Shown here piece after piece: positions 22,231-31,094 of a stretch of 64,000 nucleotides of DNA. A model generated the notes under the pieces. The model worked only from the letters and a program-made list of their open reading frames with translations. It did no database searches and was not told the origin of the DNA. The translations under genes and the position numbers were made by a program. Source of the stretch: Rhizodiscina lignyota (lineage: Eukaryota); NCBI GenBank assembly GCA_010015805.1, contig ML978121.1, positions 2,976,001 to 3,040,000 of the forward strand. The letters are read 5' to 3'. Within the stretch, counting starts at the first letter, position 1, and each line of letters begins with the position of its first letter.

Positions 22231-24083
22231 TTAAATGACATACTATATATTCGTTAGCCAAACATCACTCTCAAACGAATCAACAGACTTACTGGAATGA
22301 ATAAATATGGCACTCTCCTCTCATACTCCCTCCACGCCTCTCCATACTTCGCCCTGCACTTCACAATATCTCTCCACACACGATGGCTAATCATTGCCGT
22401 AAAGAACACTGGATAGAACCATGGGAACGGACTCCTAAAGCCCGTAATCGCGCCCCAACTCAACGCAAAGAAGAGGTCACACGAATAGTGCACCTTCCGC
22501 GCCAGTCCATACCAACCATCGCACAGGATCGTGTCACCCGTGCTCGAGCGGATGACTTTCGGGTTCTTGACTTCCTTCCATGGTAGTTGCGGGAAAGTGC
22601 GGCGGTCGAGAGCGACGCCGCGCTCGCGTGCGCGGAACATGTTTTTCTGCGAGTTGCAGGTGTCCCAGACCCAGTAGACGCCGAGATAGGCGATGAAGAG
22701 GGTGATGAGCGCAGGCTTGGGCCAGGCGTAGGTGGAAGGAGGATGGTTAGCGAGGTAGATGGTGCAGTGGCAGTAGGAGAGGGGCACGCCAGCGAGGTTC
22801 CAGAAGATGAGCATGAAGCCCCATTTTTCGTAGTACATGTCCCTGCGAGCGAATGGTAAGCGCAAAATGACTGAAAGTGTATGGATTTCAGGAAGGCTTA
22901 CCAAGTGGGCACGATCAGCTCCTCCCCTTTGCAGCATGCGTTCGCGTATAAGAAGTGTGCCATGAGAAGGAAGCACACTTCGCCAGAGACGTAGCCGTAT
23001 CGCTCGTATTGCCGTGCAGCAGTACCGAGACTGGTGAAGAAAAGAATGAACCACGGCAGTCTCACTTCGAAGAACATCTTGAAGTCCAGCCAGCCGAACA
23101 TTCGCGGATTCAGCTCTGCGCCCATGAAAAAGTCATAGACCGGATAGCCCGTCATCCTATGTTCCGCGCCCCGATATAGGGCAGAGACGTATGCAAGGAT
23201 CGAGACTATGTATCCAGATATGATGGCAACTGAGAGTAGTGGTCCGAACTCGTCGAGGAGGGTGTATAGCGGAAAGACGCCTGAGAAATGCAGCGCTACG
23301 ACTAGTACAATCGACGTGTAGAAACTGGACACGGCTGAGCAGTAGTACTTTAGCCTCTGGCCACCTAGGTGGTCCAGCGGCTTCCCTTCGGCGTAGACGC
23401 CGGGCATGAAGAGGTAGAACAGGCCCTGCACGATAAAGAACGTCCAGTATATGAGCCAAGCTTTTGCATGCGGAAAGGCGCCCGTGTACACTAGATGTCC
23501 CATCCACTTCAAGAAGTCGCCAAATGTCTGACCTGCTTGCCTTGTTGGGAAATGGCCATCATAGTATGTCGCACCAATCCACATGTACCACATTAGCAGT
23601 GGGAAGCCGACCATCAGGGCGCTGACGCCCCACGAGCCCCCAAACTCGAACTCGCCGCTGGTGTCGACTTTATGGTTTTTGGGCTTGACGGTGCCATTGG
23701 CCTTGACGGTGCCATTGGCCTTGACGGTGCCATTGGCCTTGACGGTGCCGTTGACATTGCCGTTGACATGAGGATCGAATTTCGCGTGACCATTTGCATG
23801 GCTATTAGCGTCCTCTTTAGCCTCGTCGCCCTCGTCAAGTGGTTCGCTGAGCGCTACGTTCGATTCTGAAGGGGCTGGTGTGGAATCCTCCTCGAGCTCG
23901 TGTGGGAGGACCGACTTGCGAGGACGGCCACGGCGGCCAGGTGTCTCGACGAAGCCCGGGTTGACTGGTTTTCTATGCGACTTCCATCAGCGTTCGGTCA
24001 TGATAATGATACGCTCAAATGCAGAGAATGAAGATGTACCGAGGCGTAACGCCTGCCCTTGAACGCGTCACCCTTTCCGTCAT
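22231..24083 (-). CDS. ERG4: Delta(24(28))-sterol reductase; 3 introns
   Basis: [78 protein letters not shown]. Confidence 0.95.
23684..23752 (-). repeat. 18-bp coding tandem repeat, (A)NGTVK x4, in the ERG4 N-terminus
   Basis: CTTGACGGTGCCATTGGC three times plus a partial copy. Confidence 0.9.
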
Positions 24084-24735: not shown

Positions 24736-27281
24736 TCAAGCGCCCCTTCGTGCATTTGTGCTCATTAACGTGATTTTCTTAGGCTTCTTCTTCTTACCTC
24801 CACCCGAGCCTGAGCCACCGGCAGTCCCACTCTTGGAGCTTTCTGCCAGCGACAGATTCTGTGCCTGAACCACCATGTCCTCTTCCTGTAGGAGATCCCT
24901 CTCCCAGCCTTGCAGCCATCCGTCATCTACCTCTTCATGTTGATGTGGTACCGGCTGCAGTGGCGGAGATACTGGAGCAATGGCTGGAGTGCCCCAAACT
25001 GTCCGCGAAGCTGAGGGGCTGGTCGATGGTGAAGCTAATGATGCAAACGCAGAGCCGTTCCCCCGATGCGTTGGCCAAGGTGGTGAAGCGGATATATGTT
25101 CAAGGCTAGAAGCTTCTAGCTCCGCGGTTTCGGGTGCAATTGCCATTGGCTTCATCTCTTCCGGGTCGATGGCTCGCTTCCTACGCGCATAGTCATACCT
25201 CCTTTCCTCTTCTCGCTCGGCTATCGCACGCGCCTTCTCATCGCGTGCCTCTTTATCCTGGTTGCGCTTCCTTCGGCGCTCGATCTCAGGGTTGAACCGC
25301 TCCAAAATCTCTGGTGCAACGGTATCCGTCCAATCACATTCGAGAAAGCTGACTTCACAGCCATACGGCAGGTGTGAGAGATACTTTACTCGGCGTCTGA
25401 GCTCGTCATCCACAATATGACCTGTGGATACGCGCTCTACGCGCGGAAGTATCGTCGACGGAAACGATGAGAAGTTGCCGAAGGCTTCTCTAAGGATTCG
25501 GATATCCAAGGGAGATAAGTAGTAGTGTAGAAGCGCCTGGTAGAAATAATACTCAGATGGAGGCTGGTGGCCATGCATTTGCCGATTGCGGAACTGTGAA
25601 ATGGAAGAGCTTAATGCGCTATTTGAAGGCCGACGAGACGGGTTCCCAGATGCATCAGATGTGGCTTCCGATATGGCTGTAGTTGATGACTCGGTAGCCG
25701 TGGCTGCTGACAACTGGCTTTTTGAGCTGCCGGAATAATCGGATAAGCTCTGTCCGGATTTTGCAGCATTCTGAATGCTGTACATGTCGGGCACGTCCAG
25801 GTTTGTGTCGTGGAACTGAATTGGCGGCTTCTTCGGCTTCGGTTCTACGGGCTTGCTGGGAGCAGTTGGCGGATTACCGATGCCTGTGGTCTTCTCCTTC
25901 GATTCATTGATGGCTCGGATCGCCTTCCGACTCCATTCTGCCGTGTCGTCGCCGTACATGAGGTCATCCTCCTTCTCTTGACGTTCAATCTCTTGAATGT
26001 CATTGTCGAACTGTTCATTCATGTAGTCCTCACTACCCTTCATAATCCTAGCATAGTCCATGACCTCTGCGGCCATGTACCAGGGCGTATCATCGCCTTT
26101 CGGCAAGCTTTCTGCGCCGTCTCTAGGCAACGCAAGCGTGCTCCCGTTGAGCCGCGTAACAAGCCGAAGGACAACATCGCCACCTTCGCGTGGAGGGTCA
26201 CCCTCCTGCCCAGCGAATAGTCGAGCCGGTCTCGTTTCAGAGATGTATATGCTATCCCAACAGATTGGACACTTCTTCCACCTGGGTCTTTTTTCATGTG
26301 GCTGGGCCTCTCCATCGTCTGAATGCATGTAGCGTATCAAACAAGTCAAGCAAAAGATATGACCACATTTCGCCATTCTCGGTGCCACAGGAGTATCGAG
26401 GCAGACAGGACAAGATGCCGATTGGGATTTAGAAGAAACTAGGATCTGGAGAACAGAGCTCCAGTCGAGGTGCACATCTGCGTCGATGCTCTGATGATGA
26501 TAGTTGCCGCGAGGGTCCACGATGAATCTATAATTTGCGTGTACGTATCTACAGGTAGAGGTCAGCCAGGTTATCGATTGTATAGCTAACGCAAAACCAG
26601 CTTCACACTTGAGGGCAAGGAGACATCAGGACGCTTCCCGCACCATCCAAAGTGATAGGTGTCAACCGATTCGAAGTTAAGCTGACTCTGCTCCAATCAT
26701 GGCAGCGAACATTGATAGTTGAGGAAGGCTGTATGTATGAGAGAGCCAAGCAGCTTGTCGCCCTCAAGGTGAAGCCAGTTGTGAGATATGGTATTGCTGA
26801 CCTTGCTTTATCAACCGCATGGTATCCGGAACCCATACCCCACGTCGGATTACGACGCTGATACCGGCCATGTCCATAATTCTGATGAGATTGTGGCCGT
26901 GGTGGCAAGGAGAAGTTCATTAAATGAGTGATAGAAGTCTGACCCTTTCGGCTGCTGGTCGAGCGAACGGCCGCCTGTATAGAGGGGTCAGAAACGGAGA
27001 GGATGATGATTATTGTCTTATAAACTCACGGATTCCGCCATTGCATCCTCATCCGCGAACCTATTGTACTTCTTGGAGCCCTTGTTCTGCTTCTTCGCCG
27101 CCTGATTGTTCCTCGGCGTTGGTGTTCTGGTTGAAGCCCCCGCGCCGAAAGTAGAAGACCCGCCACTACGCCGTTGCGCGGAGCTCTCGCCGGATGTGAC
27201 AGAGCCGCCCTGCGACTGTGCTGGAGATTGTGGGAGTGGAGCTGTGGTCTTTGAAGAGACAATTGGCTGGTTTGTGGCCAT
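24736..27281 (-). CDS. MAG2: RING-finger E3 ubiquitin ligase, Mag2/RNF10 family; 2 introns
   Basis: ITHLMNF, YVHANYRF, C3HC4 RING CPVCL...CGHIFCLTCL...CPICW, YYFYQ, LSPLDIRIL, RRRVKYLSHLP, C-terminal KKKKPKKITLMS. Confidence 0.88.
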
Positions 27282-28142
27282 GGTCACTTCAAAGGTCGGC
27301 TGGCGAGGAGGGGATGACGTGAAGCGCGAACCGGTCTCGAGGTGTCGTTGAACGGGCCAGAAGACTCAACTTCACGGATCGTAGGTGGAGTGAGAAACAA
27401 GAACACTGGCAACAGTCCGGAGACTGTGAAAGGAAGGCGTAGAAGAGTTGCGCCCCCCGAGGGTGGACTTTGGGGTGAGGGACAGAGTCATCGAGCATCA
27501 CGGGCTGAACATCCATGTGAATCGCCTCATCACCACGTGACTCGAAGGCGCAAACAACGGTAATAAAACGGAGTAGGACTGATCTCGCTGCAGAAGCTCA
27601 ATGCAGTGTTAGTTCGAGTGTTGTGCATTGAGATATCGTAGCGGAGCAGAGCGATGCTCTCGGCATGTGGCCACGCTCCCCCGCGTGTCTCTTCTCCACA
27701 TCCGACGTGAAGTGATGCCAAGAAATGTTGGAGGCTTTTCGAAAAGTATCGTGCATCACCAACCCCCTACCAACACCTCTCTCTCCTCCAACCACGCAGG
27801 CCCTGCTGCACCGCGCGAGCAATGCTCTCGCACAGTGGCGAGTCCCTTCACGTTTTTCTCCTCTTTCGCGGCCCTAACACTCATGGCCTCAGCCCCAGGA
27901 CGCCGTTAAAATTTCCGAGGCGGCGGCAACCTTAACCTTTCCAAACCGGTCAGCGCTGCACGACATCTCCACCTCAACCCTCACGCGCACTGCCCGTGTC
28001 ACACCTTCTACCCAGCTTCAGGCATTGATAGCAGGAGCTCTCGGCGTCCTGCTTCTCTTGTTGTTGCCTCATCGCCGGTTGCGAGGTCTTTGTCGACCTC
28101 TGCTGCCGACGTTGACGGCAGCATCAACACCAGCCTTTCGGC

Positions 28143-31094
28143 ATGATGCCAGGCCCGCATATCCCACCTGCCATCCCCATACACCCCTCGAGGCGGCAGG
28201 GTGAGTATGCTTATCACCTTCCGCAGCAGACGCACTCGCCAGTCCACAATCCCTACGCACACTACCCTCCGCCGCCGTACCATGGACAACCTCACGCGCC
28301 TCATTACCCTCCCCAGTGGTATCAGCCATATCCACAACATTATCCTCCACACCCTCCGCCACCACGTCCATACATACCGCATCAGCCACAGCTCCCGCCT
28401 CAAGGACCTATCATTGTCTCATCGACTCCTCATGCTCAACCAATACCCCAAATGGCGAGGCTGCGAGATAAGAGCCCGCCCCCATATCCACCATCAAACA
28501 TACCACAAGAGTTGCGTCCACCACAAAATGTGGAACAGCAGCAAGCTGCTCGGGTAGAATCTCCTGTAACTCCTGCTACGCCAGCAACAGCGCCATCGAT
28601 CACTGCGCCTCCACAGACAGCATCGTCAAGGCCTTCTGTGTCATCGGTGACTGCGCCAGTTCAACTACCTCCTCCTACTCGCCGAATACCATTCTACCCT
28701 GATGTAAGTGGAGCACAACTGTGTTTGCATTGCAGAAATACTAATTCTCTTTTTAGCTGCCGTGGTACTCTAATCCTGATGAACCTTTTCCGCCCCCTTC
28801 GCGCGTCCGACGGCGCAGGAGAGGCACGCAACGATCGAGTGTGCCGCTTGAACTCCCTGATATGGCATTGCTGGGACCAGAGACAAATGATGGAGGGGCA
28901 GGAGAACAAGTAGCAGAGACGGTTACTGTTGTGTCCGCAGAGGTTCCTGTGGCCGATGAACAAGGGGAAGCCCAGTCCGCAGTGGCTGCACCTTCCGACC
29001 AGGAGACCCCTATTACTTCTGAAGCGCCTTCAGAGGCTGATTCGACGCATCCAACCACACCGTCGTCTGCAGTTCCTCAGCAAACCACTCCTCGACAAGC
29101 AAGCCAGCATACACGTACGGCCACGAAACCCGCAGTTCCACTGATCCCTATCAAGCCAATCGTGCCAAACATTCCATCAGTTCAGAGGAAGAGCAGTGCT
29201 CCTTCTGCACCATCTGTTGCGGAAAAAGACGTTGCTCTAGCCATACAATCCCCGCCATCTGACGCGGCTCAAAGCGCAGATACGACGAAGCCTTCTCCTA
29301 CCGCCGAAACAGCACCAGCCTCTCCGCCAAAGGTGCCTCCAAAGTCGTGGGCAGAACTCCTCAGGTCGAACAAACCCGTTGCTCCCCCCACCGCCGTCGC
29401 AACCGCGAGTGCCTCTAATGGACTTGTCCCTGGAAAAGCTGCCACACTCGCAGATGCCATTCGCGCGTATAACGTGAACTCTGGCAGTAAACTTTCTTTC
29501 ATTGAACCCAGAGGACTCGTAAATACTGGGAATATGTGCTATATGAATTCCGTATGTCTTCCAACACCATCCTACTTCTGAACTGACATATCTGCAGATT
29601 CTTCAAATTCTTGTATTCTGTGTACCATTTTACGATTTTCTCGATCAGATTGGAAAGCGAGCGGCGCATAGCTTTAAAAGTGATACACCCTTGCTTGATG
29701 CTATGTAAGTCTCTCTACTCTCTTAGCGTGCGTTGTGCTCACAGTCCTTAGGATCATGTTTATGCGCGAGTTTCCCGTTATCGACTCAGCCGTGTCCGTG
29801 GAACAGCTCCGGATGCGTCTCAAGGACAATGAGCTTGAGCAATATGGCGAAGCATTCATTCCAGAGTACGTTTACGACGTAATAAAGCGTTTGCCGCGAT
29901 TTTCTTCTATGAGGGTGAGCACGCATCTCTGGTTCGATTCATTGCAATTGCTGACCGACAATGTAGCGAGGACACCAGCAAGACGCTGAAGAGTTCCTTG
30001 GGTTCTTACTTGAAGGTCTTCATGATGAGTGCACTCACGTTCTAAGGGCACTACCATCGATTGCCCCAGAAGTTAATGAGGCGACTTCGCCCACCTCTGA
30101 GCGCTCTGTGGCTGGATCTGCAGATGGAGGATGGATGGAAGTTGGGCCAAAGCAGAAAGCTTCCATTACACGATCGTCCGGCCACGTTGTCTCCGACTCC
30201 CCGATCACCAAAATCTTCGGCGGTAATTTGCGCTCAGAACTACGTGTCCCAGGCCTCAAGAACTCTGTCACACTGGAGCCGTATCAGCCGCTACAACTGG
30301 ACATTGGTGCACCTAATGTTCACAATATTACAGATGCCTTGAAGGGCCTCACGAGATCCGAAACACTGCAAGGTGATTTCAACTCTCCTCGCGGACCAGG
30401 CACATCCGCAACGAAACAAGTGTTCATCGAGACGCTTCCGCCCGTTTTGATTTTACACCTCAAGCGCTTCCAATACGACAATGCCGGCGGTACTCAGAAA
30501 ATCTGGAAACGCGTCGGCTATCCTCTTGAACTTGAACTCCCTAAAGAGGTCTTCCCTCCAAACAAGAGGAACAACCTTTCCATGAGAGGAGGTCTGCCAC
30601 GCTATCGCCTAACCGGTGTAGTTTACCATCATGGTAAGAATGCAGGAGGTGGCCACTACACCGTCGACGTACGACGGCAGGAGGGTCGGGAATGGATTCG
30701 CCTCGACGACACGGTGATCCGACGCGTACGCAGCGACGAAGTAGCCGAGGGTGGTGCTGAAGAAGATCCAAAGGTCCTTGCCGCGGCCCTCGAGAATCAC
30801 AAACAGGATATCCAGAGCGGAAACATCTTTGACCGCTTCGACGAGGAGGATGGGGAGAAGGAGGAGGACGGCCAAGGCTGGAGCCAGGTCAATGGAACAC
30901 AGATGACTCCGACTGGCACAGCTGGAAAGAAGTGGAGCGGCGTCGTCAACGGCACGAATACGGGAACCGCCACACCGAGCACGAAGGGGGAGAGGACTCC
31001 AAAGGGGAAGGAATTCAAGGCGGACAGGGTCGCGTACATCCTGATCTACTCTCAGATCAAGGCCCAGCCCACTTCTGCTCCTCTCTCATCTTGA
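28143..31094 (+). CDS. UBP3: Ubiquitin C-terminal hydrolase, Ubp3/USP10 family; about 4 introns
   Basis: Pro/Gln-rich N-terminus, PKSWAELL motif, Cys box PRGLVNTGNMCYMNS, QQDAEEFL, SPITKIFGG, LHLKRF, His box VVYHHGKNAGGGHYT. Confidence 0.9.

Follow-up and report, generated by a model that had tools for sequence, protein, structure and literature searches.

We analysed a 64,000-nt stretch of DNA from Rhizodiscina lignyota (Dothideomycetes, Aulographales; assembly GCA_010015805.1, contig ML978121.1, positions 2,976,001 to 3,040,000), hereafter called the window, in which two genes lie head to head between positions 24736 and 31094: a gene for a RING-type E3 ubiquitin ligase of the RNF10/Mag2 type and a gene for a ubiquitin-specific protease (USP) of the Ubp3/USP10 type. 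An initial annotation, made from the letters of the window alone, had described a minus-strand RING gene starting at 27281 and a plus-strand USP gene starting at 28143, diverging with no gene between them, and had proposed that they form a co-regulated writer and eraser of ubiquitin marks on the 40S ribosomal subunit. Both genes are indeed intact at these positions and diverge, with a spacer of 861 bp from ATG to ATG (27282..28142), that is, below 1 kb. Two sets of relatives were used for comparison. (i) A profile scan of metagenome contigs yielded 80 loci bearing the RING gene (designated with the prefix L), 36 of which are informative for gene order as they extend 5 kb or more beyond RING exon 3 on its upstream side; near-identical loci were merged into dereplicated lineages (n = 27 for linkage to the USP gene and n = 33 for linkage to ERG24), and class labels were assigned from the similarity of the RING protein to named proteins. 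(ii) In named genomes, the locus tags of RING homologues were compared with those of USP homologues, 18 genomes being comparable, with both tags in a single assembly.

The RING gene (24736..27281, minus strand) comprises three exons (27281..27030, 26974..26802 and 26548..24739) followed by a stop codon at 24736-24738. Its two introns are bounded by GTGAGT..CAG and GTCAGC..TAG, and the spliced translation of 745 aa is letter for letter the annotated protein NA57DRAFT_70953 of R. lignyota (P0001). Intron 2 (26549-26801, minus strand) is unusually long, with 253 nt vs 55 nt for intron 1, and a search for Rfam RNAs within it found none. The C3HC4 RING finger is encoded at 26248..26412 on the minus strand (residues 72-126 of the exon-3 open reading frame (ORF); Pfam PF13923, PF00097 and others), and all eight zinc ligands (C46, C49, C61, H63, C66, C69, C93 and C96) are invariant in an alignment of 33 sequences (A1). 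The protein has many relatives: 1923 of 8000 scored candidates matched at E<=0.001, and 278 cluster representatives at E<=1e-30. Conserved blocks are also seen on the N-terminal side of the RING finger and in the C-terminal half, in 33 representatives with identities as low as 25%, their tie to the RNF10 family being made solely through the names given by annotators.

The USP gene (28143..31094, plus strand) comprises five exons (28143..28703, 28757..29551, 29598..29704, 29752..29914 and 29967..31091), with a stop codon at 31092-31094, and encodes a protein of 917 aa whose reading frame contains no internal stop. The homologous loci L015, L032 and L013 each give one unbroken tblastn match that runs colinear with the gene model, and we therefore consider its splice junctions validated. 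The first half of the protein is a long low-complexity region rich in Pro, Ser and Thr, and the USP domain is C-terminal; exons 1-4 have no Pfam match, and exon 5 alone matches the UCH family (PF00443, E 9e-33). The spliced catalytic domain spans 29510..30749, with the Cys box at the end of exon 2 (codon 29537-29539) and the His box in exon 5 (codon 30654-30656), both intact and both invariant columns of alignment A6. Exon 2 opens with a strongly conserved block that shows no variation among 15 homologues. No 100% match to the USP was obtained among proteins of 658-2000 aa, the best being 70%, while the RING protein of the same genome was matched at 100% (P0001); the public annotation may lack the window USP or contain a very different model of it.

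The initial annotation had identified the two genes as MAG2/RNF10 and UBP3/USP10. These identities agree with the names borne by homologues and with the domain content, and orthology of both proteins is likely on that footing, which consists of annotators' names and architecture, and no more than these, rather than of a tree. Homologues of the RING protein include a 'RING finger protein P8B7.23-like' (P0102) and a 'RING finger domain protein (Rnf10), putative' (P0451). Of the 120 USP matches listed, with identities of 62-71% over exon 5, 11 (at 62-69%) bear the name UBP3, hydrolase 3 or hydrolase 10, given independently by different annotators; in addition, a Pfam-less N-terminal half followed by a C-terminal USP domain, with zf-UBP, DUSP, UBA, MATH and rhodanese domains all absent by Pfam, is the architecture expected of Ubp3/USP10. 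Several search results count against these assignments. One listed USP homologue is named 'hydrolase-like protein 7'. A PDB search with the USP returned no USP10/Ubp3 catalytic domain among its matches, the best being USP15, USP8 and USP2, and a PDB profile search with the RING protein returned no RNF10/Mag2 entry, the best matches being the RING domains of BRCA1 and TRIM5. An ESM Atlas search with both proteins gave generic names only, with no RNF10, Mag2, USP10 or Ubp3 entry. Finally, when a Bre5/G3BP-binding segment was sought through PDB, the N-terminal exon had no match at E<=10 and the exon-2 block had no match to a Bre5-binding peptide among the best 60 of 103. One might thus suppose that the USP or the RING protein belongs to another subfamily, in which case the writer/eraser reading would be wrong; given the independently assigned names, the fitting architecture and the conservation of the RING protein well outside its RING finger, we regard such a misassignment as very improbable.

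The opposing activities of the two families are documented. Reviews and Garshott 2021 report that stalled 40S subunits are ubiquitylated on uS3 (and uS5) by RNF10/Mag2 and that these marks rise when USP10 is lost; reviews further describe the monoubiquitylation of uS3 by Mag2 in 18S non-functional rRNA decay, and Jung 2017 the deubiquitylation of Rps3/uS3 by Ubp3/USP10. The antagonism on uS3/uS5, a premise of the initial annotation, is thus found in the literature.

We then considered how widely the arrangement is shared. In the metagenome set, 26 of the 36 informative loci, corresponding to 18 of 27 dereplicated lineages, have the USP gene upstream of the RING gene, in every case on the other strand and equally far away. 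The lineages with the pair are Pleosporales-like, other Dothideomycetes, Leotiomycete-like (with RING proteins 70-86% identical to those of Hyaloscypha, Mollisiaceae and Drepanopeziza) and Lecanoromycete-like. In the named genomes, the tags of the two genes are consecutive in 15 of 18, spread over six classes and taxa incertae sedis: Dothideomycetes (Kalmusia), Eurotiomycetes (Helicocarpus and Rasamsonia), Xylobotryomycetes (Cirrosporium), Sareomycetes (Sarea), Candelariomycetes (Candelaria and Candelina), the lichen-forming genera Lambiella, Xylographa, Psora, Polycauliona, Gallowayella and Squamulea, which we take to be Lecanoromycetes, and, incertae sedis, Thelocarpon and Caeruleum. On a tree of 77 RING proteins, two changes suffice to account for the presence or absence of the pair. 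Taken together, these results show that the head-to-head pairing is at least as old as the common ancestor of the sampled leotiomyceta classes, most of which still have it although the genes around it were reshuffled.

The neighbourhood of the pair provides the yardstick for its retention. In the window, an ERG4/ERG24-family sterol reductase gene (22257..23986, minus strand; PF01222, E 1e-69 and 4e-66) lies in tandem downstream of the RING gene. Of the 33 informative lineages, 8 have this gene downstream of RING (loci L012, L053, L058, L059, L067 and L080 included); in four Leotiomycete-like lineages (L022, L029-31, L052 and L079) it lies beyond the USP gene, the latter position being as expected if exactly the RING-USP block was inverted as a unit. 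L067 and L065 represent a divergent lineage, with a RING protein 52-54% identical to any named protein and a long tree branch, in which USP, RING and ERG24 are still together. On the other side, the PEBP gene next to the USP gene in the window and the FAD monooxygenase gene that follows it were each found in 0 of the 80 loci. Between classes, the ORFs in common within +-10 kb are limited to RING, USP and, in some cases, ERG24. In filamentous ascomycetes, gene order and orientation are randomised within chromosomes (Hane 2011). Measured against these three other local junctions, and not against all head-to-head pairs with a short spacer, the pair is clearly better kept than its surroundings. 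The synteny comparison thus bears out the initial annotation, in that the adjacency is not lineage-restricted and is better kept than the other junctions tested in the neighbourhood. We conclude that the head-to-head arrangement of the likely writer and eraser of ubiquitin on the 40S subunit is genuine and of ancient origin, and that it has been preferentially retained.

A number of observations pull the other way. The pair is absent in 10 of the 36 informative loci, or 9 of the 27 lineages, and is dispensable as a pair; since there are lineages without it, the pairing is not essential. All these absences fall within Dothideomycetes, where they form one clade, Trypetheliales and one long branch. 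The clade without the pair includes a locus with a RING protein 100% identical to that of Aureobasidium pullulans, together with Cryomyces and 'Dothideomycetes sp. NU459'. The pair was broken in Dothideomycetidae and Trypetheliales. In three of the 18 named genomes the tags are not consecutive: they are two apart in a Mollisiaceae genome and 43 apart in Trypethelium, and the genes are on different contigs in Bogoriella. In Myriangium too, the RING and USP genes are on different contigs. The samples themselves call for caution, as the metagenome lineages are mutually related and not independent, consecutive tags are evidence of adjacency and do not show orientation, and the sampling is confined to the classes named above. 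In addition, ERG24 is functionally unrelated and yet linked across classes, so that part of the retention may be passive.

The loci without the USP gene retain a trace of how it was lost. In these loci, the gene that diverges from RING encodes a dienelactone hydrolase or, in one sub-clade, a fructosamine kinase. The same dienelactone hydrolase gene is located just beyond the USP gene in pair-bearing loci; it was mapped on the minus strand in L059 (8096-8548), L074 (8162-8779), L033 (7920-8552) and L043 (3680-4207), and on the plus strand in L001 (4326-4932) and L015 (4884-5243). As this gene adjoins RING where the USP gene is lost and sits beyond the USP gene where it is kept, a local rearrangement removed the USP gene and so broke the pair in the Dothideomycetidae-like lineages.

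Two yeasts extend the comparison beyond filamentous species. In Saccharomyces cerevisiae, MAG2 (YLR427W), tabulated as the yeast homologue of human RNF10 (PMC2198940), and the Ubp3 gene (YER151C; PMC3032702) are, by their systematic names, on chromosomes XII and V: the proteins have the same uS3 write and erase roles and, unlike the pair of the window, their genes are unlinked, which again goes against a retained unit. In Schizosaccharomyces pombe, ubp3 is SPBP8B7.21, tabulated as the homologue or orthologue of YER151C in PMC3032702. SPBP8B7.21 and the gene of the RING protein P8B7.23 are two gene numbers apart, with one number between them. By the naming convention the two genes are presumably on the same strand, hence not head to head. 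The S. pombe genes therefore belong to the same two families by name and lie close together, and they differ from the pair of the window by the intervening gene number; this proximity suggests that the linkage may predate Pezizomycotina. SPBP8B7.22 and SPBP8B7.23 were mentioned in no main text of the literature searched, supplementary tables being outside that search.

These data bear on the possibility that the pair was kept passively. In such a scenario, an old pair would persist since inversions breaking within a short spacer, where promoters are interleaved, would seldom be viable, the shared ubiquitin mark would be a coincidence and the arrangement would have no regulatory meaning. The cross-class linkage of ERG24 and the loss of the pair in Dothideomycetidae, Trypetheliales and S. 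cerevisiae are in line with this scenario. However, it accounts poorly for retention in 18 of 27 lineages and 15 of 18 genomes, well above the 8/33, 0/80 and 0/80 of the three other junctions, for the apparent inversion of the pair as a unit and for the nearness of the two genes in S. pombe; moreover, a neighbour picked at random would a priori have a very small chance of being the known antagonist on the same ubiquitin mark. We hold purely passive retention to be possible and, on balance, unlikely.

The spacer between the two genes holds no sign of a further gene. Eleven stop-to-stop ORFs overlap it, none of which has a spacer-confined match in the 80 related loci, the sole matches to these ORFs being antisense frames over USP exon 1; searches of the spacer for tRNA genes and Rfam RNAs found neither, and the absence of an intervening gene noted by the initial annotation is thus confirmed. 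The length of the spacer ranges from 454 to 1106 bp across 12 lineages, 7 of which fall within 861-904 bp. In the window, the 207 nt next to the RING start codon and the 257 nt next to the USP start codon are free of ATGs, and all the ATGs of the spacer, including 14 in the RING sense, are confined to the central 397 bp. The same layout is found in the homologous spacers of 11 loci, with ~200-350 nt free of ATGs before each start codon and an ATG-rich centre. Over the 12 lineages, the median lengths of the ATG-free zones are 232 and 268 nt vs 52 and 58 nt in shuffled spacers, and none of 1000 shuffles had zones as long. The central core between the zones measures 136-401 bp in 9 of the 12 lineages. 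This layout suggests leaders of ~200-300 nt free of upstream start codons on either side of a compact central promoter core, and transcription start sites of the two genes that would lie no more than ~400 bp apart. In S. cerevisiae, MAG2 is tabulated with a conserved upstream ORF (uORF) of 6 codons at -71 in a leader of ~109 nt (PMC1964767); in contrast, the putative RING leaders of Dothideomycetes are without upstream ATGs.

A global MAFFT alignment of the 12 spacers revealed no conserved block. Motifs were sought by counting k-mers against shuffled spacers. An E-box, CACGTG(A), is present at 27534..27539 in the window, 258 bp upstream of the RING ATG, and at 217-318 bp upstream of this ATG in 10 of the 12 lineages. 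The 7-mer CACGTGA occurs in 9 of the 12 spacers vs a 95th percentile of 8 and a maximum of 10 in shuffles, so that the count alone is borderline; we take the E-box as conserved because its position is nearly constant and not because of its count. In Pleosporales-like loci, the E-box is followed by a further conserved block.

On the USP side, the spacer contains a hairpin. In the window, this element of ~62 nt is located at 28060..28125 on the plus strand, within what is presumably the 5' leader of the USP transcript, ends 17 nt before the USP ATG and folds at -36.3 kcal/mol by RNAfold (z -5.7). Its 5' arm corresponds to a 9-mer detected by k-mer counting in 9 of the 12 spacers vs no more than 4 in shuffles, at 69-83 nt from the USP ATG and always on the USP strand. 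In Pleosporales only, the hairpin also includes a third shared k-mer, GAGACCAAG. In 8 of 10 Dothideomycete lineages, the stability of the hairpin is the highest of any 70-nt stretch in the spacer, and the hairpin ends 9-20 nt before the ATG; its copies fold at -28 to -37 kcal/mol. A covariance model found it in the window and in 14 loci, all Dothideomycete-like and always on the USP strand (minus-strand copies at 8673-8768 in L001, 8248-8342 in L006, 3640-3734 in L013 and 3860-3953 in L058, among others); five of these 14 loci are too short to show the USP gene itself. In the resulting alignment 93.5% of the cells are paired and 6 of 20 pairs show double changes, a level reached in none of 500 shuffles, although the alignment was fitted to the model, which biases the score in its favour. 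The outer six pairs are near-invariant, and the inner stem covaries. In a strand test, from which an antisense L006 row was excluded, 9 of 14 copies folded better as the sense than as the antisense strand, 4 folded worse and the window copy was about equal; the strand preference is weak. With a second covariance model and with filters off, no copy was found in the Leotiomycete-like and Lecanoromycete-like loci, and one weak match (E 0.1) was recorded at the expected place in L039. No Rfam family matched the hairpin, and a literature search combining Ubp3/USP10 with untranslated region or hairpin gave nothing relevant among the matches listed. This covarying leader hairpin of Dothideomycetes is new here.

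A very stable hairpin close to a start codon should impede scanning ribosomes. More generally, stable 5'-leader hairpins gate translation, either as Kozak-type scanning barriers or as iron-responsive elements. The USP hairpin resembles these elements in its stability of ~-35 kcal/mol, its nearness to the start codon and its invariant outer and covarying inner stem. It differs from them in having no Rfam match and no known binding protein, and in being found, within our sample, in Dothideomycetes only. Judging from the ATG-free zone, and from that zone only, the hairpin would be part of the USP transcript, and the eraser probably has translational control of its own.

The explanation that we favour, and consider probable though far from secure, is that of an intact, ancient and retained writer/eraser pair served by a compact shared promoter region, to which control by a hairpin in the USP leader was added in Dothideomycetes. 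Both genes would be transcribed outward from this region, with a central core of ~140-400 bp flanked by ATG-free leaders of ~200-300 nt and an E-box ~50 bp outside the RING leader. Writer and eraser would then be transcribed in step, and selection would usually act against any break-up of the pair. In Dothideomycetes, the mRNA of the eraser would carry an extra and separate control in the form of the very stable hairpin 9-20 nt before its start codon, which should make translation of the USP depend on scanning and helicase capacity. Co-regulation of the RING and USP genes is plausible. Three points argue against a promoter that governs both genes jointly: (i) the start sites, the leaders and the co-expression are all deduced from sequence; (ii) the distance of the E-box to the USP ATG varies from 173 to 650 bp, its position being constant relative to the RING ATG only; and (iii) as the hairpin is on one gene only, the promoter alone would not set the ratio of ligase to deubiquitylase (DUB). 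Its presence on the USP leader alone suggests that the ligase:DUB ratio would also be set after transcription.

The latter points lead to a different account, in which the two genes are adjacent and independently regulated, each with its own promoter and leader control, the ratio being set post-transcriptionally through the USP hairpin and not by a shared promoter. The one-sided hairpin, the positioning of the E-box relative to RING only and a central core that can reach 400 bp or more, leaving room for two core promoters, would all suit this account, and the conserved MAG2 uORF (PMC1964767, as tabulated there) suggests that translational control exists in the RING family. It leaves the adjacency across classes unexplained, however, and the pair is retained in Leotiomycete-like and Lecanoromycete-like loci that lack the hairpin. 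Wholly independent regulation seems distinctly unlikely to us, and we return to the shared promoter region with an added hairpin control as the preferred reading.

Known systems help to place the pair. In the human initiation ribosome quality control (iRQC) cycle, the same two families by annotators' names are at work, RNF10 writing and USP10, with G3BP1, erasing on uS3 and uS5; the coupling is described at the protein level, with no genomic linkage mentioned in the passages available. In the window, by contrast, the coupling is in gene order. The human RNF10 and USP10 genes are on different chromosomes. Conserved divergent pairs of functionally linked genes are well known in fungi, as exemplified by histone H2A-H2B, GAL1-GAL10 and niiA-niaD. 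Like the pair described here, these are head to head, belong to one pathway, have a spacer below 1 kb and have long been kept. Their partners act in the same direction, as subunits or consecutive steps, whereas the RING and USP products oppose each other; because these products are antagonistic, their co-transcription would buffer the ratio between them rather than raise a flux. No description of a pairing of RNF10/Mag2 and USP10/Ubp3 genes was found among the matches listed in the literature searched, in agreement with the initial annotation, which knew of none. As conserved divergent pairs of functionally linked genes are already known, the novelty lies in the antagonism of the partners and in the undescribed leader hairpin.

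A bolder proposal can be made, which we put forward as a conjecture with low odds of being right: the writer and the eraser of 40S ubiquitin would form an ancient selected unit in filamentous ascomycetes, and the Dothideomycete USP-leader hairpin (~-35 kcal/mol) would be a built-in sensor of scanning and initiation capacity. Synthesis of the deubiquitylase would then report on scanning and initiation, the failures of which are what the ligase marks; if real, such a sensor would complete a feedback circuit in 40S quality control.

The antagonism of RNF10/Mag2 and USP10/Ubp3 on the 40S subunit has been worked out biochemically only in recent years. The pairing of their likely genes across several classes, amid scrambled gene order, is evidence from evolution, independent of the biochemistry, that the two enzymes work as a single module in which the dose of one relative to the other is important. 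Natural experiments are available as well, in which clades that keep the pair (Pleosporales, Eurotiomycetes and the lichen-forming classes) can be set against those in which it is broken (Dothideomycetidae such as Aureobasidium, Trypetheliales and budding yeast). Finally, the leader hairpin provides a concrete candidate cis-element for the translational control of a ribosome-quality-control enzyme.

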